From Mobula hypostoma (Eukaryota), in contig NC_086097.1 in NCBI RefSeq assembly GCF_963921235.1, positions 135,410,001 through 135,474,000 on the forward strand: a DNA stretch of 64,000 nt. Reading direction: 5' to 3'. This document shows, piece after piece, positions 991-55,574 of the stretch. A program made the translations under genes and the position numbers. Within the stretch, counting starts at the first letter, position 1, and each line of letters starts with the position of its first letter. The notes under the pieces are model-generated. The model searched no databases, had not been told where the DNA came from, and was given only the letters and a program-made list of their open reading frames with translations.

Positions 991-1719
991 GTAAGTATTT
1001 TTGGAGGGTTAGGGTGCAGTGTGCTTCAGAACAGAATCATTTCTATCTTTGTGTTAATAGAAAACCTGGCTGTTCAGGATATTTTCTGTTATTGCACAAG
1101 TAGTGAAGAGTAAGAGGTAGTGCTGGAAGGGAAGAGAGAAAGTGGAGATGGTAATGATTCACTTTTGTACCCAATACCAGCCAGAGTTAATTAAAGCACA
1201 AAATGAACAAATAGTTGATTTCTGTTAGTAAGGAAGAAGTTTTGTTTTAGGATACTTGGCATGAGATGAGCCCTCTTTTCAATTTCACTATAGTTGGTAA
1301 AGCCTTCATTGATGGTAGTTTCAAATCCTTGACACCTTTCCTAACTCTGCATCTCTTGCTGTCCATGAAAATTTGCTCAGTTCTCTAGTAGCCCAGCTGT
1401 CTTGTGCTTTTCCAATTTCCTTCCTTAGAACAGTACAATGCTGGAACGAGCCCTATTGTGCTGAACTAATTAAAATAGTAATCAAATGGCCAACTAGCCT
1501 AATCCCTTCTTCTAACACAATGTCCATATCCTATCTGCGCCATTGTGCCGGCTACCATGCTCCTTCCTGGTTGCGACATCTACCTTCCTCTCAATCCCTT
1601 TACTTTCTGACCTGGTGCTCTGGTTCCTATCTCACCCCCCCCCTCCCTTGACCACCCCCCCCCCCAATCGAACTAGTTTAAACACTCCCAAGTGGTACAA
1701 GCCAACCTCCTAGCCAGGA

Positions 1720-1945
1720 AACATACATCAAAGTTGCTGGTGAACGCAGCAGGCCAAGCAGCATCTATAGGAAGAGGCGCAGTCGACGTTTCAGGCCGAG
1801 ACCCTTCGTCAGGACTGACGAAGGGTCTCGGCCTGAAACGTCGACTGCGCCTCTTCCTATAGATGCTGCTTGGCCTGCTGCGTTCACCAGCAACTTTGAT
1901 GTATGTTGCTTGAATTTCCAGCATCTGCAGAATTCCTGTTGTTTG
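1720..1945. mobile_element. Non-autonomous Penelope-like element: inverted pseudo-LTR pair forming a perfect hairpin, plus a 38-nt tail
   Basis: Arms 1720-1812 and 1815-1907 are exact reverse complements. TSD CCTCCTAGCCAGGA at 1706-1719 and 1946-1959. The same sequence follows PLE ORF ends at about 5940 and 44250. Confidence 0.9.
1780..1817 (-). ncRNA. Minimal type I hammerhead ribozyme (intact core)
   Basis: CAGUC-CUGACGA-AGGGUCUCGGCCU-GAAA-C-GUC-GACUG. Stem I CAGUC/GACUG, CUGANGA and GAAA boxes, GUC cleavage triplet, and a palindromic ACGU in place of stem III. Confidence 0.8.
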
Positions 1946-2369
1946 CCTCCTAGCCAGGATATCATTTCCCCTCCAGTTAAAGTCCCACCTGTTGCTTTTG
2001 TCCAAGTCACCCCTATCCCAGAAGAGATTCCGATGATCTTAAAAACCTGAAACTGCCCCCTGCACCTATTCCTCAGCCACTTGTACAACTGTTCTATCTC
2101 TCCATTCCTGTTCTGATTAGCATGTGGCACTAACAGTAATCCAGAGACTGTGACATTTGAGATCCTGCGATCCTGCCTCGTTCCTAATTTTCTGTATTCA
2201 CTGGGCAGGACCTCTACCCCTTTTCTACCTATGTCATTGTGTCAATGTGCACTGTGACCTTTGGCTGCTCACGCTTCCCCATAAGAATGTTCTGCAGTCA
2301 CTCTGAGAAATGCTGAACCCTGGCACCTGGGAGGTAACACACTGTTTTCTTTGTGTGAAGTCAAGAAAC

Positions 2370-2855
2370 AGGCTTCAATTACATAGGACAGTGTAGTACA
2401 GGAAAAGTCCCTTTGTCCCATAATATCTGTGCCAAATTAAACTACCCCCTATTCCTTGCATATTCATGTGCTTATATAAAACCCTTTTGAATGTCACCAA
2501 CATGTCTGCTTCCCCCAGAACCCCTAGTAGCCTGTTCCAAAATAAACTCCCCCCCCCACCCCCACCCCCACCCCACCATAAAGCTATGCCCTCTAGTTTT
2601 CAGCATTTCTATCCTGGTGGAAAGATTTTGACTGTTTACCCTATCCATTTTTTTTAAAACCTCTAACAGGTCTCCCTTGTCTCTTGACATTCCAGAGAAA
2701 ACAACCCAAGTTTGTCCAAACCCCTCCTCATAGTTAGTATCATCTAATCCTTACAATATCCCAGTAGACTGGTGCTGAACCTCTTCAAAACATGCACATC
2801 CCTCCTGTGATGGAGCATCTCGAACTATACACAATACTCTAAGTGCAACCTAATC
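2370..2855 (-). mobile_element. CR1 LINE 3' fragment
   Basis: Reverse complement matches the CR1 ORF2 C-terminal region (RL..LGLFSLE...RGDL.EV.K). Confidence 0.65.
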
Positions 2856-3257
2856 GAAGACACATGAGGTACTGCAGATGCTGGTAATCTAGCACATTAC
2901 ACACAATGCGCTGATGAAGGGTCTAGTTTTATATGGGATTATGAACCATAAGTAATGATGTATTAATATCCTTCAAACTATGCAGTGTGAGGCTGTGAAT
3001 ATATCACAGACTGCTAGATGCTGATAAGTTGTGACCATGCAGTCTTAGCTGCTTCAACCCCACCTCTTTCCCCCACCCAGAAGTTGCTTGACCTGCTGAG
3101 GTTCTCCGGCAGATTTTGTTCCTCGTTGTGGTGATGTTGACAATGGTATTTGAACACAATCAAAGAAGATTGTAGACAGGCACTAGGATCACTTCACTTT
3201 ATTTTTAAGGCAGATAACTACCAGTTTCATAATGTGATAATTCTTCCCTTTTGACAG

Positions 3258-3353
3258 ATACTGTTTATCCCACTAATTCTGACGATGGTTTATGTATGGG
3301 CACAACTGAACAAAGACCAGATTGTGACATTTTGGTTCGGGATGACATTTAAG
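3258..3353 (+). CDS. DERL1: Derlin-1-like exon (96 nt): ILFIPLILTMVYVWAQLNKDQIVTFWFGMTFK
   Basis: Pyrimidine tract plus GACAG acceptor and AAG|GTAGGA donor. Carries the Derlin-1 motif YVWAQLN..IV.FWFG..FK. Confidence 0.92.
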
Positions 3354-4454: not shown

Positions 4455-6042
4455 ACCCTACTGAATCTGACCAGTTCCCTCCACACCACCCTCCTCCATC
4501 TGGCAGGACTGGGCCTCACCTTCAATAATTTCTCCTTTGGCTCCTCCTATTTTCTCCAAACTCAAGGGATAGCATGCGCCCCAACTATGCCTGCCTTTTC
4601 ATTGGCTACAGTCCATGTTCCAAGCATTCCTTGCTAATGCTCCCCAACTCTTACTGCACTAGTGATGACTGCATTGGTGCTGCTTCATGCACCCATGCTG
4701 AGCTCATCAATTTCATTAACTTTGCCTCCAACTTCTCTCCTCCACTTAAGTTCACTTGGTCCATTTCTGACATCTCTCTCCCGTCTCAATCCTTCTGTCT
4801 TTATCTCTGGAGACAAACTGATTTTTAAAAATATAAACCTAGCGATTCCCACGGTCATCTTGAATATCTCTTTCCATACCATCTCCGGTAAAAATTGCTA
4901 TTCCCTTTTCTAAGTTTCTCCTTCTCCACTGCATCTTTTCTCAGGATGAGGCTTTCCTTTCCAGGACATCAGAAATGTCCTCCTTCAAAGAACAGGGTTT
5001 CCCTTCCTCCACTATTGATGTTACCCTCACCCCGGATATCCACTGTCACTGCATCTTACCTTAACATGGATCGAGTTCATCGTCTTCACCTACCATGAGC
5101 CTCTGCATCCAGCACATTATTCTCTGCAACATCCGCCATCTTCAACGGGATCCTCCCACCAAAGACATCTTTATCTCCGCTTTCCACATGGATCATTCCC
5201 TCAGCCATTTGTCCATCTCCATCGATCACCCTCCTGGCACATTTCCCTGCAAGCAAGAGAAATGCTACACCTTCCCATTCATTACCTCGCTCGCCTCCAT
5301 TCAGGGCTCCAAACAGTCCTTCCAGATGAGGCAACACTTCACCTGAGAATCTGTTGGGGTCATTTATTGTATCCGGTGTTCCTGATGCAGCTTCCTCTGC
5401 AATTGGTGAGACCATTGGTGTAAATTGATGGACCGCTTTGTCGAACATCTGAGTTCCATCCACAAAGGGTGGAATTTCTCGAGGGCCAGCCATTTTTATT
5501 CCCATTCCTGTTCCAACATGTTGGTCCATGGCTTCCTCTTTTGCCACAATGAGGCCACACCTCCTATTCTGTCCAGGTAACCTCCAACCTGATGGCCTGA
5601 ATATCAATTTCTCCTTCCTTTGGTAATTCTCTCCACTCCCTTCTTGCAGGCTCAAAGGGCCGAATGGTCTACTTCTGCACCTAATGACTATTCCCCACTT
5701 TGGCCTCGTCTCTTTTCCTCGGCTGCCTTTCACCCCTTCTCCTTTCCTTTCTCCATGGTCCACTCTCCTCTCCTATCTGATTCCTTCTTCCCAGTCCTTT
5801 GCCTTTTCCACCTATCATCTCCCAGTTTATTTCATCCCCTCTCCACTACCCACCTGGCTTCAACTATAATCTTCTAGCTTGTCCTCCTTCCCTTCTCCCT
5901 CCCCTTCTTATTCTGGCATCTTCACTCTTCCTTTTCAATCCTTGATGATGGGTCTCAGCCCAAAACCTTGACTGTTTATTCATTTCAATAGAAGCTGCCT
6001 GACCTGCTGAGTTCCTCCAGCATTTTGTGTGTGTTGCTCTGA
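4455..6042 (+). mobile_element. Degenerate Penelope-like retroelement (RT plus GIY-YIG endonuclease, Neptune-like) ending in a pseudo-LTR
   Basis: Frameshifted motifs NNFSFGSSYFLQTQGIA, PNYACLFIGY, DDCIGAAS...LKFTWSISD, FPCKQEKCYT, GVIYCIRC...IGET and LQPDGLNINFS. A pyrimidine tract and a decayed hammerhead (about 5938-5973) follow. Confidence 0.85.
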
Positions 6043-6563
6043 AATCTAACTTATTCTTTCCCAGTTGTGATGAAGGGCTATGGAGCTGGAAGGTTGACAA
6101 ATGTTGTCTAACCTGAGTTTTGTTGCCAACATTTATTCTTAAAAGAAGACGCAAGTCGGCAATAATTTGACTTTCTTTTCCTTTAGCTAAAATATTTGGT
6201 TTTGAGGGCATTTGGGTACAAGGTGCCCAACCATTAGGTTTTTACATCATAGTAGATTTCACTCTGTCTGATCTTTGTATCCATAGCACATAGCAACTTC
6301 AAGAAAACCTGGGAGGGTGCACCCCATGTGGAGAGTTCACAATCCTGTACCACTATAGGAACTTTGTTAGAGGCAAGGAGTGCACCAATGATGTTTCCTT
6401 TTTTCTCTATTCTTCCCTGCCACAGAGGTCACTACTGAAAATCTCAAGGCTGTTAACTGTAACTCAATGGTACTGGGAGTGGGTAAAGAATGCTGGTAGT
6501 CTTTCATTAACCAAAACATTTTAAAACTGCTTTTGAATTTTAATTTTTGTGTAACCCCAACAG

Positions 6564-18235: not shown

Positions 18236-18366
18236 TTCCTGAAGAAGGGCCTCGGCCTGAAACGCTGACTGTTTATTCATTTCCATTGATGCTGCCTGGC
18301 CTGCTAAGTTCCTTCACCATTTTGTGTGTGTGCTTTGGATTTCCAGCATCTGCAGAATTTCTCGTG
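18236..18366 (+). mobile_element. Solo PLE pseudo-LTR with a mutated hammerhead and tail
   Basis: CTGAAGAAGGGCCTCGGCCTGAAACGCTGACTG...TTTCCAGCATCTGCAGAATT. Confidence 0.8.
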
Positions 18367-42600: not shown

Positions 42601-43840
42601 CATGTTGACCATCAATGACCTATTCCTGAGTAATTTTCCATAGTTCCAATCTATCCCGTTCAGTATCGAGTATCTCAAGAGATCACTTTTTCCTTCAAAC
42701 TCCACAAATACAGGTGAAGCTCACTCAGCCCTCACTGGACAATTCCCTCATCCCTGGAATCAACTCGGAATGAACTCCAAGGCAAGAATCAGCTTCCTGG
42801 ATAATGTACTCCAGGTGTGGGTCACGGCAAAGCCCTGCACAATCTCAGTGACCTTTCCAACTTTTGGACGCCAACCTTGACGCATTACAGACCAACCTAG
42901 CAATGGCTTGAGTGAGAATATTGCACAGGATTTAGATGATCTTCCCCGGATATTGGCTTTGTTTTTGCCAATGTGCCATACTCAGGCAGTGACACTGAAG
43001 GTGTAAGAGGGACTAGTCCAGGTGACAGGAGCATCAGTGTTAAGCTTGAACCAATTGTGCAAGACACCATGAATGCTTGGGAAACAAGGCAGTTAAAGTT
43101 AGACTGATATCACATTGGTTACATTCAGGTTATAGAGTAAGGCAGCATGCAAACAGACACTTTGGAACAACTAGTCCACGTCGCCCATAGTATCCTACCT
43201 CTAGTCCCAGTTATCCACAATCAGCCCATAACCCCCTCCCTTCTACATACCTACAAAAATGCCTTATAAATGTTGCAATTGTACTGACCTCGATCACATC
43301 ATTGCACCTCATTCCAGCTACTCACTACCCACTGTGTAAAGATGTTATCTCTTAAAATGTCTTCTCTCTTACCTTGTATCTGTGCTCTCTAGAACTGAAC
43401 TCCCGAACCCTGGGGAAAAGACAATGACCATCCACTTTATTCATATCCTTCATCATTGTAAACATCTGTGAGACCACCTCTCATTCTCCAGCCAATCTCT
43501 CACTACAATTCAGGCCCCCTAGTCCAGGCAGCATCCTTGTTGCTGGAAAGGGTGCATCTTTTGTGACTGAACAGTGTCTGAAACCTCCAAGTGCAGCCTG
43601 ACCGATAACTTACACAACTGCAACATAATGTTTCTATTCCTACGGTAATTGCCCTGACTGATAAAGGCAAACAGCCTGTCTGCTTGAGCGGCCGCTTTTA
43701 ACGAATTGTGCACTTGCACCCCCAGGTCCCGCTGTTCCACAACTCTTATTAGTGCCTTGCCATTCACTGTCCAAGTCTTACCCTCGTCAGACTGTCCAAA
43801 ATACATCACCTCACACTTATCCAAGTTGAAATCCATTTGC

Positions 43841-44346
43841 AAACAACAGGAATCCTGCAGATGCCGGAAACTCAAGCAACACACACCTTATATTCCGTCT
43901 GGGTAGCCTCCAACCTGATGGCATGAACATCGACTTCTCTAACTTCCGCTAATGCCCCACCTCCCCCTCATACCCCATCTGTTAATTATTTTTATACATT
44001 CTTTCTCTCACTCTCCTTTTTCTCCCTCTGTCCCTCTGACTATACCCCTTGCCCATCCTCTGGGTTCCCCCCCCCTTGTCTTTCACCCCGGATCTCCTGT
44101 CCCATGATCCTCTCATATCCCTTTTGCCCATCACTTGTCCAGCTCTTGGCTCCATCCCTCCCCCTCCTGTCTTCTCCTATCATTTTGGATCTCCCCCTCC
44201 CCCTCCCCCTCCCACTTTCAAGTCTCTTACCAACTCTTCCTTCAGTTAGTCCTGACGAAGGGTCTCGGCCTGAAACATCGACTATACCTCTTCCTAGAGA
44301 TGCTGCCTGGCCTGCTGCGTTCACCAGCAACTTGGATGTGTGTTGC
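43841..44346 (+). mobile_element. Young 5'-truncated Penelope-like insertion: inverted tail, GIY-YIG C-terminus, and pseudo-LTR with hammerhead
   Basis: TSD TTGAAATCCATTTGC at 43826-43840 and 44347-44361. Encodes HLIFRLGSLQPDGMNIDFSNFR*. The left 45 nt are the reverse complement of the element tail. Confidence 0.9.
44247..44284 (+). ncRNA. Minimal type I hammerhead ribozyme (AUC triplet variant)
   Basis: UAGUC-CUGACGA-AGGGUCUCGGCCU-GAAA-C-AUC-GACUA. Stem I is intact, and the ACGU palindrome is changed to ACAU. Confidence 0.65.
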
Positions 44347-46479
44347 TTGAAATCCATTTGCCTTTTCTCGGTCCATCTCCCAAACTGATCAAGATCTCTT
44401 TGCAATTCATTGTAACCAGGTTCAACAAGAACAGAGCATCACCAGCAAACTTATTAACTGTGCCATGTGCATAGTCAAAAGCAGACTTTAGTTTGGTACC
44501 AGAGCAGATCTGTAGTCTGCACCCAGCAGAATTTGTACTATTAGTCTCATTGTTGTTTAAAATTGTTCAAATGGAAACTTACACATTTATCGCCTTTAAT
44601 CCATTGTCCTCTCCAAGGAAGTACTTCACTGATATCAGCAATTAGTGGTGTAAATCATGGAGCCAATAGAAAGGATCCTAATTACTTTTATATGTCTTCA
44701 GGTGGAATTTGCACAAATGATACTACTTTATATCCATTTCTAAATTAACTTACAAAGTTCCATTGTGTTAATATACCTCATCATACTCAAAAGTACAAGC
44801 TGATCTAAAGTTTACTGTACAATTCTAAAAGTTGCGGAACAATGGAGATTCAAATGCTAGTGTCTTCTGCACCCATTTGTGGCTTTGCACCAGCTCTTTG
44901 GAGGCAGACATTTTAAGAACTTTGCTCGTTGTTAGCCCTCTGCCTCGTGACATCATGAATGACAACAATTAGATGTGAGCATTACTTCACACTGCTGGGG
45001 TCAGCAGAGCGGAACTTTGTACAGAAAACGTTCCAGAATGTCTTGGATACACAGGAGACTGCAGATTCAGAACACTGACAATTCCTTTCCTCCCACAGAT
45101 ACTGCTTGACCTGCTGAGTTCCTCCAGCAGGTTGTCATTAGAATCGTAGAGCACAGAAACAGGTCTTTTGGGCTAACTCATAATTTCTGATTGTGTTGCC
45201 CAGCAAGCTAGAATCATCTGCCTGCCTTTGGCCCATCTCTCCCTGTAGATAGCTTTTACAGGTTGCTGATGTGGCCACTTCAACCACTCCTTCTGGCAGC
45301 ACATTCCAAATATGTACCACTTCTGCGTAAAGAGGCCTCCCCTAATATCTCTAATTTCTTGTTTCTGATGTTAAGCCTATGTCCTCTCGTTTTCTGCCTT
45401 CCCTCCATTGGAAAAAGACCATGTGCTTTCACTTTGTCTATGCCTCTTGTGATATTGTACTCCTCTCATCAGGTCACCCCTCAATCGTCTAAATTCCTGG
45501 GATTAAAGTCTCATTGTTTGAAAATATTCTTTTAACTCACCTTCGAGAGGGTCCTCACAATGTTAGCATAATGATAAAAGACACAGGAGCAGGAGGCTAT
45601 TTGGTCCCTCAAACCTACTCCACTATTTAATATGATAGCTCATCCTGTACTTCTATACCATATTCCTGATGCTTTGTCCCACCTCGAAATCTTTCCATCT
45701 ATAATTCAGCGTAATGGCTCCTTATGGTAGCAAAATCGACTGCTTTATCACCCAAGGGAAGAAATTTCTCCCCTCTGCCCTGATCAGTACCCCGAGGCCA
45801 TGCCCCATTGTTCTTGACAGCATATCCAAGAGAAATATCAGCCACGCATTCATCCTAACAAAATCTTCCATGGTGCAATCAGCTCTCCTCTCATTCCTCT
45901 AATCTCTGCTGGATACAGATCTAGTCAACCCAACAAAAGTCCCATCACCTCAGGAGCTCATCTGGTGCATCCTCTTAATGGCAAGTACATTCTTTCTTGG
46001 TTAAGGAGACCAAAACTGCACACAATACTCTAGATGTGGTCTCACCAACGTCCTTAATACTAATAGAAATATTTGACATTCTGGAAGCAGGAAAAATCTA
46101 TGCCAAGCTGTTGATACGGTGAATTGTACTGCACTTCTATTAACATGGACCCAACTTGCATAGGAGGCCATTTGGCCCTCTTAGGCCCATGCTGATTCTA
46201 TGAAAGAGCCCTCTAATTAGGGACATTCTCCCCTGATCTCCACCCGCCCCCACAACCTATTTCGGCATTTCTTTTTGACGAAGTTCCCATTGAGTCCATT
46301 TCTGATCTTCTTTCAGTGTATTCCAGATCACAACCATCATGTAAAAAAGAATGCATCTCTCTTGTTTTCAGTGAAATTAGTTTTAATTTGGACCAATTTA
46401 CTGATTCGCGTGCCAATGGGTGTTCTAACAGCTTATGCAACCCCTGATAAAGCCCAGAGATGGTTACAGGATCAATTAT

Positions 46480-52511: not shown

Positions 52512-53050
52512 TACTTTATTAATCCCGAGGGAAATTTGGTTTCGTTACAGCCGCACCAACCAAGAATAGAGCGTAAATATAGCAATACAAAAACCACCAA
52601 CAATCAAACAACAAAATGCAAACTATGCCAGATGGAAAATAAGTCCAGGACCAGTCTATTGGCTCGGGATGTCTGATCCTCCACGGGAGGAGCTGCACGT
52701 TCGATGGCCACAGGCAGGAACGACCTCCCGTGCCGCCAGGTGTTGTATCACGGTGGAATGTGGCCGAAGTCCAACAGTAAAAAGTTCAATATCCAGTCTG
52801 CAAACACGTTCCTTGATTGTAATATACCTCGGATTGCACCATCCGTTGTCAGCCAGATCAGTAAGCACCCAACTCCTTTATGCTTACCGCTCTCAGTGAA
52901 CTTCCGGTCAGCTGGAACGGTATTACCCACTGAACTCCTCTTCTCCATAAGTCTCCGTTCTCTCGACCCGGTCCTCTTTCCTCGGCTTTGTGATTCCCCT
53001 CTGCATCCTCTGTGTGTTTTCCTCCGGATTTCAGCAGAGGTGTCTGCCGC
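52480..53050 (-). mobile_element. Internally deleted non-autonomous Rex1/Babar derivative with (TATC)n tail
   Basis: Endonuclease-like ESGKHKGVG / NGWCNPRYITIKERVCRLDIELFTVGLRP joined directly to the C-terminal RSFLPVAI. Followed by AATAAAGTATATCTATC repeats. Confidence 0.65.
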
Positions 53051-55574
53051 AGTCAATGTTTTGGGCCGAGACCCTTCATCAGGGTTGGGGGAAAAAAGAT
53101 AAGAACTTCTCATCTGTTTTTCCAGTTCCAATGAAGGGTCTCGGCCCAAAACATTGACCGTTTACTCTTTTCCATAGATGCTGCCTGACCTGCTGAGTTT
53201 TTCTAGCATTTTGTATGTGTTGCTTGGACTTCCAGCATCTGCAGATTTTCTCTTGCAAAGAACTTTCTGCATTTGCTTCACTTCACAAAGTTATCCTTTA
53301 AACTTATTAATATAATTTGCAAACTGTAGGGAGATTTACATGAACAAATTTTCAAGATCTATATTTGCTTAAATGCACTCCCATTGGTAAAAATGCAAAG
53401 CTTCCAGACTATTTCACATCTTACAAAAACAAGTCCTGAAATAATAGTTCTCCCTTCTTGCCACTCATTCTTTATCATTTGAGTCATCTTTCTTATTCAT
53501 CCTTTTCTCCTTTCTCTAAACTCAGTGGAATAATGCAGATTCATCACCTGAGAGAATGTATCTGGGCTTGCTTCCAATATAGCACTCAACATCTCACCCA
53601 TTTCTCCCTTAATTTTGTTTACTCTCCGATTTGGATTAATTCCTTCATCAAACCAAAAGGTGCTGGAAATACTCAATAGATCAGGCAGCATCTGTGAAAA
53701 GAGAAACAGGGTTTAAAACTGAAGAGTCTTTGCTTTGGACTGGATAGAATCAAATCTACTTTTCTTTCCATCAGCGCCACCCGATCAGCGGAGATTCTCC
53801 AACATTTTCTGTTTTTATTTCAGATTTCCAGTCTTTGCCGTTTTTCTTAGATCTTCTTTTATCAAAATATAACTAACTTCTGTTTATTAAACTTTTTTTT
53901 AAAAAAGTAATACACGAGGTTAAAAATAATTTGGGATAGGTGCTGCGAAGTATTGGTAATCTTAACCCTGGTACAGATATTATGGAGAAGCAACCAAAAG
54001 GAAAACCATACACCAGGGCTATGCTACAAGACAAGTCAATTAAAAAAATTCCATCTGACAGCCTATCAAATAACAAACCAGGTACAAACTCAGCAGTGTT
54101 CAGCTTGGGCAGCTGAAAGAATATTGAGGCAGAAATGACATTTTCCTTGTACAAAGTGCAATAGAAATCACTTTATTGAAGATACAAGAGAGATGGTTAA
54201 AATAAGAGGAAAGGACAGCATATGGCTACTTGTAGACAGTGTTGCATCATTGGTGTACACCACAAACAGGACAAGTTCAGTAGAATCTCAAAGCATGAGA
54301 AACAGAAAGCCCTCAAAAGCAAGACCTGCTTATGAGTATTACTCCATAAAAGTCAGAACCCCAAGGTAAAGAAAAGCCAAGAGTCACACAGGAAAGGGGA
54401 GATCCAAAACTGAGTAAGAGGAAGAAGGTTCATTAATACAATTGGCCTCAAGTAAATTTAAAAATAACCACCCTAGTGAAAAAAGAGCGACACAAGGAAA
54501 GGGAACTGAGTGAGCCAGCTAGTGAGTATGAGGGAAAGGTTCATTCATACCAGTCATCAAGTTAAAAAAAAGTCATTCCCGTGAATGCATAGTCAGAGAA
54601 ATTAACAAGGATAAAAAGGTTTCTTTTAAAAATTACAGGTTTTCTTTCTAAAAAAAAGGAAACTGAAGTAATATGCTATGAAGGATTTCAGTTTCATCTT
54701 GAAGTCTTAATGCCTCATAACTGGTGGATAAAGTCTGCACAGAAATTTTAGCCATGTAGTCATTTTAAATAGATAAAGCAACAGTGCAAGCTAGTCTATA
54801 AATGTTACTGAATGAGAATACTGTCTAACAATCACACATTACATCAAACACATCAGTTATTTACAATTGCATTTTGATAGAGGATCAAGAATGCATTAAG
54901 TTTCAGCATTCAGACACTTGAATTTGCAAGATGTTCTTGGTTCAAGAAGAATCAGCAACTCAAATTCAACATCAACAAGGCTCAAATTAAGCAGCATGAA
55001 TATATAAACATTGTCAAACCCTTACATTTTGTAACATTAAAAAATACACCTTTCCCCCCCGCAGAAATTAATTCAAGACAAGGGGACATAACAATTTATT
55101 ATTTGTCACATTGCACCTGGACTGAAGGGGCACGAGCCAACCACAGGTCTAGGGTCACATAAAGAGCAGACCGAATCTGGGCGGCCGACTGCCTTCCTTT
55201 TAAGTTCAGAATGAGCCAGGGAGTACTTAAGATAATCTGGTAAATTTGAGGTAACAGATACTAATGTTTTTCAATTAATTATTTAAAGTTAACACTATTT
55301 AGAAAGCTATGACCACACCAATATCTCTATTTTATTAGACATGGCACTCCAAATTCCAATCTCCCACTGTATTAACACAATCAAGATTGTGTTGGCGGTA
55401 AAAACTCAGGTCATGTGGAACGTGTGGTTTCACTTTGCTTCAAACGTGCAAGAATGCAAGCAGCTACAGGAAGCAGACACTTGTCCAATAAAGCATGACC
55501 ACATTCCTCCCCATGCTTGGTGTCACTATCGCAGAGGACACGTGCTGGACCCATTATATAAATACAATTGCGAA

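Follow-up and report, generated by a model that had tools for sequence, protein, structure and literature searches.

Architecture of the insert and its host intron

The window analysed here is a stretch of 64,000 nucleotides of the Mobula hypostoma genome (NC_086097.1, positions 135,410,001 to 135,474,000, forward strand). Near its start, contigs of the runs X5 and X10 (RNA type, a presumed label) joined position 990 to position 3258 with GT..AG ends, and the next exon (3255-3353) matched Pfam DER1 with an E value of 1.9e-7, above the cut-off. This splice joint, together with the DER1 match, placed the insert within an intron (991..3257) of a plus-strand Derlin (Der1-family) gene, as the earlier note had claimed. 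The intron was spliced across in contigs of organism A and of the related organism B.

The insert was flanked by two exact 14-bp TSD copies on the plus strand (1706..1719 and 1946..1959) and consisted of three parts. Arm B (1720..1814, minus strand) is an inverted, 5'-truncated pLTR piece without a tail. Arm A (1815..1907, plus strand) covers +1..+93 of the pLTR in sense orientation; its hammerhead core lacks the two core-proximal stem I pairs, and the arm is followed by the 38-nt tail of a Penelope-like element (PLE) (1908..1945, plus strand; pLTR +94..+131), which lies between two end points of the family. Here and below, pLTR positions were mapped on the full-length locus L148, with +1 at the C of the CUGA core. 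In this numbering, arm B runs from +93, the second family end point, to -1, or to -3 if the 2-nt microhomology is counted. The head-to-head junction (1813..1816), delimited by comparison with the natural sequence upstream of the pLTR in L148, comprises a 2-nt loop and the 2-nt microhomology between the arms, and we infer that it is the joining point of two cDNAs. A 226-bp insert with exact 93-bp arms (1720-1812/1815-1907), a GA loop (1813-1814), an unpaired 38-nt tail and an exact 14-bp TSD had been described before, and all of these coordinates held. Each arm contained bases of its own, with 2 nt of arm B absent from arm A and the tail of arm A absent from arm B. The predicted fold of 1700-1965 had a free energy of -214 kcal/mol (z = -25.8), and none of 200 shuffles was equally good; the 93-bp hairpin is predicted to place a long dsRNA in the Derlin pre-mRNA.

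No differences were observed between the two arms or between the arms and the pLTR of L148, and this identity bears out the proposal that the insertion is recent. One X10 contig of organism B fitted the window from 1946 onward, with 58 letters of the contig before this point unaligned, which is consistent with an empty site at the insertion position in organism B; no empty allele was seen in organism A among the contig records listed. The right junction was covered without difference by the DNA contig X1 (1924-2542) and by an X5 contig (1926-2166; other sample and study), whereas none of the contigs listed spanned the whole hairpin or the left junction. Such a gap would be expected if the hairpin were a fold-back chimera of the assembly or library. 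The chance of such an artefact is negligible, however, given the exact TSD and one-sided tail, the thousands of similar loci that each have their own TSD, the older decayed versions in the same window, and the coverage of the right junction in two studies.

The source element is an abundant Penelope-like element

The sequence at 1815-1944 was identical at 130/130 positions to both complete pLTRs of L148 (C12:173174500-173184499), in agreement with the PLE origin claimed previously. L148 holds two or more PLE units in tandem, each 3,515 bp long and 99.4% identical to one another; it contains an RT frame of 935 aa, and both units carry the same frameshift between RT and endonuclease. At a second locus, L151, RT and GIY-YIG were found in a single frame of 885 aa. 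The Pfam matches of the source element (RVT_1, E 4.8e-5; GIY-YIG, E 9e-4) were both below gathering scores, and the motifs were seen directly. In longer copies, the region upstream of the pLTR consisted of a pyrimidine-rich 3' region and then the GIY-YIG and RT reading frame. The description of the unit as protein-less therefore holds for the window stub alone, because its source element encodes RT and GIY-YIG.

The L151 frame contained a DKG motif, a CX4CxxC linker and a CxxC inside the GIY-YIG motif. Neptune elements are described in PMC8557442 as having a CX2-5CxxC linker between RT and EN and a CCHH-type EN motif, and the linker and EN motifs of the source element agree with that description. 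The features of EN+ PLEs were all found, namely derivation from a pLTR, RT and GIY-YIG in one ORF, an inverted or tandem partial copy with the 38-nt tail, and a TSD. Across the genome of 3.48 Gb, a 30-nt piece of the tail was matched exactly 35,312 times. Judged by its sequence, the 226-base hairpin is two back-to-back scraps of the end of an abundant PLE.

Decayed relatives of the same pLTR were also observed in the window at 53048-53255, 18239-18362, 5943-6043, 63241-63217 (minus strand) and 2853-2926, with 72-86% identity where aligned. The one at 53048-53255 was again a head-to-head pair, and the one at 2853-2926 was a remnant in the same Derlin intron. An older family copy at 43826-44360 had the mirror arrangement, in which an inverted short tail piece (43840-43885) lay beside a sense arm that extended from the ORF end to about +97, between 14-bp direct repeats (43826-43839 and 44347-44360).

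The hammerhead motif lies beside the inversion point

The minimal type I hammerhead claimed on the minus strand (1780..1817) was recovered when read from 1817 to 1780, with the CUGANGA...GAAA core, a 5-bp stem I, the GUC and a predicted cut between 1785 and 1784. Its stem II consisted of a bulge and 4 bp, its stem III was loopless and palindromic, and the outermost pair of stem I was supplied by the junction. The plus-strand core had been described as lacking its 5' stem I strand; the two core-proximal positions were indeed mismatched (G.A and A.G), but three distal pairs are still possible. The inversion point, placed right at the hammerhead in the earlier note, lies at the 5' edge of the motif and is 28 nt from the cleavage site. 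This position, 28 nt 5' of the cut, indicates that both arms were copied from uncut RNA.

We compared the motif with the min-HHRs of metazoan PLEs described in PMC4209133, which are also noted there as pairs 100-700 bp apart on opposite strands. The two share the core, an extra nucleotide before stem II, a stem I of 4-5 bp and a palindromic, loopless stem III of the kind that requires a dimer; according to that paper, the monomer that was assayed failed to cleave, and cleavage by dimers was weak. They differ in that stem II is short here (4 bp) and closes with G.U, or with A-U in a 3-bp register, instead of the highly conserved G10.1-C11.1. This was the case in the young subfamily to which the window copy (1822-1834) belongs and in most motifs of the fetched loci, a minority having G-C. 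Stems I and II, the core and the minimal palindromic stem III of a PLE minimal hammerhead were thus found, both on the minus strand of the insert and in the natural pLTR, without the G10.1-C11.1 closing pair. An Rfam scan of 1000-3000, which the earlier note had proposed, returned no hammerhead model at E<=5. The top Rfam matches were generic miRNA hairpins below the gathering score, and a miRNA identity was rejected. The motif belongs to the element's own pLTR and is of the dimer-type minimal kind.

In transcripts of both strands, five of the seven CUGACGA bases were predicted to be paired with a probability above 0.999. In a head-to-head pair, transcription of either strand reaches the antisense arm before the sense arm, and every RNA read across the insert is predicted to have both ribozyme cores locked in the hairpin.

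Related copies have preferred 3' ends and variable junctions

To describe the family without regard to structure, we used a sample chosen by the tail alone, consisting of the first 90 of 100 listed exact tail matches in the first 6.1 Mb of contig C1, each mapped on L148. An adjacent inverted arm was present in 53 of these 90 copies (two-arm copies), and 37 had a single arm. The arms with a tail ended at +127..+142 in 90/90 copies, all of which had been selected on an exact tail, and the tail-less inverted arm ended at +85..+102 in 44 of the 53 two-arm copies. The 3' ends thus favoured two points, separated by about 37 nt, of which each arm used one. The 5' ends were spread between +91 and -2866, and those of the two arms varied independently of each other. 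Either arm could be the longer (L046, L090 and L093 versus L084, L128 and L131), by up to hundreds of bases. Since either arm may be longer, and since the arms in the window each hold unique bases, neither can have been copied from the other.

The junctions were likewise diverse. Genome-wide, 3,297 loci inverted within 30 nt between two stem II anchors, via many junctions, and among the first 50 listed the window junction was unchanged in none; the commonest (about 8/50, counted by eye) was a different one with a 3-nt microhomology. A fixed inversion point had been suggested by the 40 best DNA matches to the unit and was rejected by the structure-blind sampling of copies.

The window junction itself had 224 exact matches genome-wide to a 24-nt pattern. 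Its mirror forms, with the tail on either arm, were found 93 and 118 times, and the first 30 loci of each form gave a same-junction set of 60 loci, in 40 of which the second arm was long enough to type. The arms were concordant at four subfamily positions in 31 of these 40 loci, compared with 10.5 in shuffles (maximum 19, n=2000), and six of the nine disagreements in discordant arms fell at CpG positions. The subfamily types differed between loci, and an exact TSD of 13-15 bp was found in 39 of the 60. The mirror forms and the several subfamily backgrounds indicate that the window junction has arisen repeatedly from different source elements, with no single master.

In 14 of the 60 same-junction hairpins (L160, L163, L169, L171, L177, L185, L195, L197, L200, L203, L204, L206, L210 and L215), the tail-less arm was short and ended at +33..+75, not near +93; nine of the 14 had a clean TSD of at least 11 bp. 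Short arms were equally common in both mirror forms (6/30 and 8/30). In the 90-copy sample, four of the five short-arm copies (L042, L082, L103 and L122) had near-symmetric junctions.

These observations bear on the proposal that the insert belongs to a self-propagating, non-autonomous family, either retrozyme-like or a hairpin SINE, in which a 226-nt master RNA would be processed by the hammerhead and reinserted whole. The 40 best matches would seem to speak for it, as all 40 spanned nearly the whole unit with 98-100% identity and 28 of the 30 fetched had a TSD of at least 11 bp, but they were selected for likeness to the query. The short arms could similarly be read as 5' truncation of a hairpin RNA, yet they occurred at similar frequencies in both mirror forms. 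The two mirror forms themselves, and concordant arms on several subfamily backgrounds, are difficult to reconcile with one master RNA, and many copies overran the ends of the window copy, with arms that reached as far as +102 and +142, deeper in the tail or in the first part of the ORF. Short tandem arrays were absent from all 90 sampled copies, the hammerhead cores are predicted to be masked, and no strand bias was seen in A-to-G changes (15 versus 15 in the 60 hairpins). These changes were also not clustered, and an ADAR scar or re-mobilisation of the whole hairpin was rejected. The variable junctions, a refuting test set beforehand, together with the mirror forms and subfamilies, largely refuted the self-propagating ribozyme-bearing unit, which we regard as very improbable. 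The alternative given in the earlier note, a minimal PLE insertion product, was supported by the pLTR identity, the two-arm copies and the TSD.

Two-strand priming as the most probable origin of the hairpin

An inverted pLTR with a one-sided tail of 30-40 bp and a TSD is a described PLE signature (PMC8557442, PMC3846280). Arkhipova et al. (PMC3846280) read the palindromes at such junctions as self-priming on an antisense template, and in a snap-back of this kind either the antisense template would prime itself or the cDNA would fold at a short palindrome near the hammerhead and copy itself. The subfamily letters shared by the arms and the near-symmetric junctions of the four short-arm copies are what this route would leave behind. 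However, a snap-back arm cannot exceed its template, and here either arm extended hundreds of bases past the other, the arms in the window each held bases missing from the other, and the stop of the second arm at +85..+102 in 44/53 copies would be unexplained; we therefore consider it improbable as the general route.

The explanation that we prefer, with a probability of roughly 85%, is that a single insertion produced two 5'-truncated pLTR copies head to head, with reverse transcription primed from each of the nicked target strands and the two short cDNAs then joined. Its first steps are modelled on the PLE PAc (Anolis carolinensis), whose protein, according to PMC11167929, cleaves and extends both target strands in vitro and starts RT internally at two sites bounding the tail; the initial 172 nt of the ORF, a stretch that continues beyond both start sites, are required, and the RNA used as template is mainly uncleaved. 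By analogy with this in vitro work, the element protein would cut both target strands with a stagger of 13-15 nt, reverse transcription of the element RNA would be primed near +130 by one target end and near +93 by the other, and the two antisense cDNAs would be extended toward the RNA 5' end. We further propose that extension frequently halts close to the hammerhead's 5' border and that the cDNA 3' ends anneal through 1-4 complementary bases and are joined by microhomology, which would give a product in the order TSD, inverted arm, arm, tail, TSD. Such a stub would be a dead end, without sequence downstream of the tail and with a ribozyme predicted to be masked, the antisense arm being transcribed first on either strand.

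Some observations stand against two-strand priming as a complete account. Two fixed start sites do not explain the 14/60 second arms that ended at +33..+75, nine of them with a clean TSD, and later gene conversion would likewise make the arms concordant. PAc is of the Poseidon clade and the source of the window insert has Neptune-type motifs; the later steps of PLE integration are described in PMC11167929 as still to be validated. Because of the short second arms and the near-symmetric junctions of four of the five short-arm copies, a minority of copies may have been formed by snap-back, from other start sites or by re-mobilisation.

Arm 5' ends pile up at the edge of the hammerhead

Among the 142 arms of the 90-copy sample, 43 had their 5' end within -8..+8. 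The rate of stopping in this interval was 2.3% per base of arms still at risk, compared with 0.14% at -100..-41 and 0.15% at +41..+84, and was thus about 15-fold higher at the 5' edge of the hammerhead. Single-arm copies likewise ended at this edge (9/36), which indicates that pairing of one arm with the other cannot fully account for the pile-up. In the whole genome, 3,054 arms started at -3 after two non-element letters and 588 at -7, the search pattern for -7 being 4 letters longer than that for -3, and 52,494 read through to -5. The 30 loci fetched among the -3 matches were mostly true truncations, and a few came from older related families. In a DNA run, the strongest loose contig ends shown included +130 (186 contigs) and -3 (94 contigs).

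Further clusters of 5' ends were observed on both sides of this edge. A second, weaker one at pLTR -23..-9 (L148 4864-4878) comprised 15/142 arms, seven of them single-arm, close to a sequence that resembles a branch point and is followed by a pyrimidine tract and AG, with no splice joint among those listed. A small excess (13/142 arms) was seen at +24..+40, in the region of the predicted cut site and of the 3' stem I strand. In a genome-wide count for a possible scar of in vivo cleavage, arms starting at the cut site (+29) numbered 335 and those at a control position (+31) 139, with patterns that both excluded the youngest subfamily and that differed in the flanking letters allowed (purine versus pyrimidine).

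With a pyrimidine tract and AG upstream of the hot spot, a splice acceptor was considered, and no GT..AG joint was found there in the 15 joints listed of 281, although contigs can miss splicing and do not show RNA ends. One X10 contig of organism B skipped 308 bases at L148 4859-5168 and landed exactly at -3, without splice-site ends. There was also no excess of a cap-derived G before -3, the preceding letter being A in 44, C in 32 and G in 24 of the first 100 listed matches (counted by eye).

The sequence around -3 fits the vertebrate initiator consensus. For this reason, and because an internal promoter is reported for Drosophila Penelope (PMC2377424), the cause that we prefer for the pile-up is that it possibly marks the 5' end of the element RNA. 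A more specific proposal is tentative, and we give it less than even odds. The main RNA start would lie at about -3, driven by an internal promoter, the hairpin stub would be the default product, and the ORF would move only by tandem read-through. RT would start internally about 95 and 135 nt downstream and copy from both target strands until it ran off the template. If this were true, tens of thousands of copies would form a base-resolution in vivo record of two-strand priming creating the inverted pLTR and tail.

Comparison with known systems

The window insert is a real, recent and minimal PLE insertion of an already described architecture, one among thousands, and is ordinary except that copies of this sort end at a regular place. 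Taken alone, the locus is of little weight, since truncated PLE insertions number in the thousands and this one lies in an intron that was spliced across in the RNA contigs seen. The copy population carries more, as it offers a testable in vivo readout of PLE integration through the 37-nt spacing of the two end points, the stagger of 13-15 nt, the joins by microhomology and the frequent stops at the hammerhead edge. The copies also imply several thousand near-perfect hairpins in the genome, some of them intronic, with effects on dsRNA editing or sensing that are only potential. Our literature search, which covered the main texts of mostly open-access papers, returned no report on PLE hairpin stubs of sharks or rays, twin-type PLE priming or a pile-up at the hammerhead edge.

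Compared with the EN+ PLE insertion units described in PMC8557442, PMC3846280 and PMC2377424, the insert has the same head-to-head arms, a tail at one end only (38 nt here) and a TSD, and the family has the same heavy 5' truncation, palindrome at the inverted junction and partial tandems of the full element. It differs from them in that both arms are cut to the last 93-131 nt, by which the whole insert becomes one hairpin, and in that arm 5' ends accumulate at the hammerhead's 5' border; neither feature was found stated for PLE insertion units in the passages of these papers that were consulted.

With PAc, as presented in PMC11167929, the family shares a pLTR hammerhead that is followed closely by the two end points between which the tail lies. 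Priming from both strands would give the head-to-head structure, and the use of uncleaved RNA as template is in keeping with arms that continue across the cut site. In contrast to PAc, the element of the window carries linker motifs of the Neptune type, and its tail is followed downstream by the ORF start. A word search of the main text of PMC11167929 found no link between two-strand extension and inverted genomic copies.

Non-LTR retrozymes (PMC7229834; bioRxiv 10.64898/2026.07.22.740005) resemble the insert in that they are described as non-coding, PLE-related and of similar size, with a type I hammerhead and a long TSD. They differ in being tandem repeats in head-to-tail order, each unit with a hammerhead of its own, and in forming circular RNAs. 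None of the 90 sampled copies was a short array in this order, and their variable junctions and ends did not define a fixed, propagated monomer. Unlike a retrozyme, the insert in the Derlin intron is a head-to-head pair with a minimal motif that is predicted to be masked.
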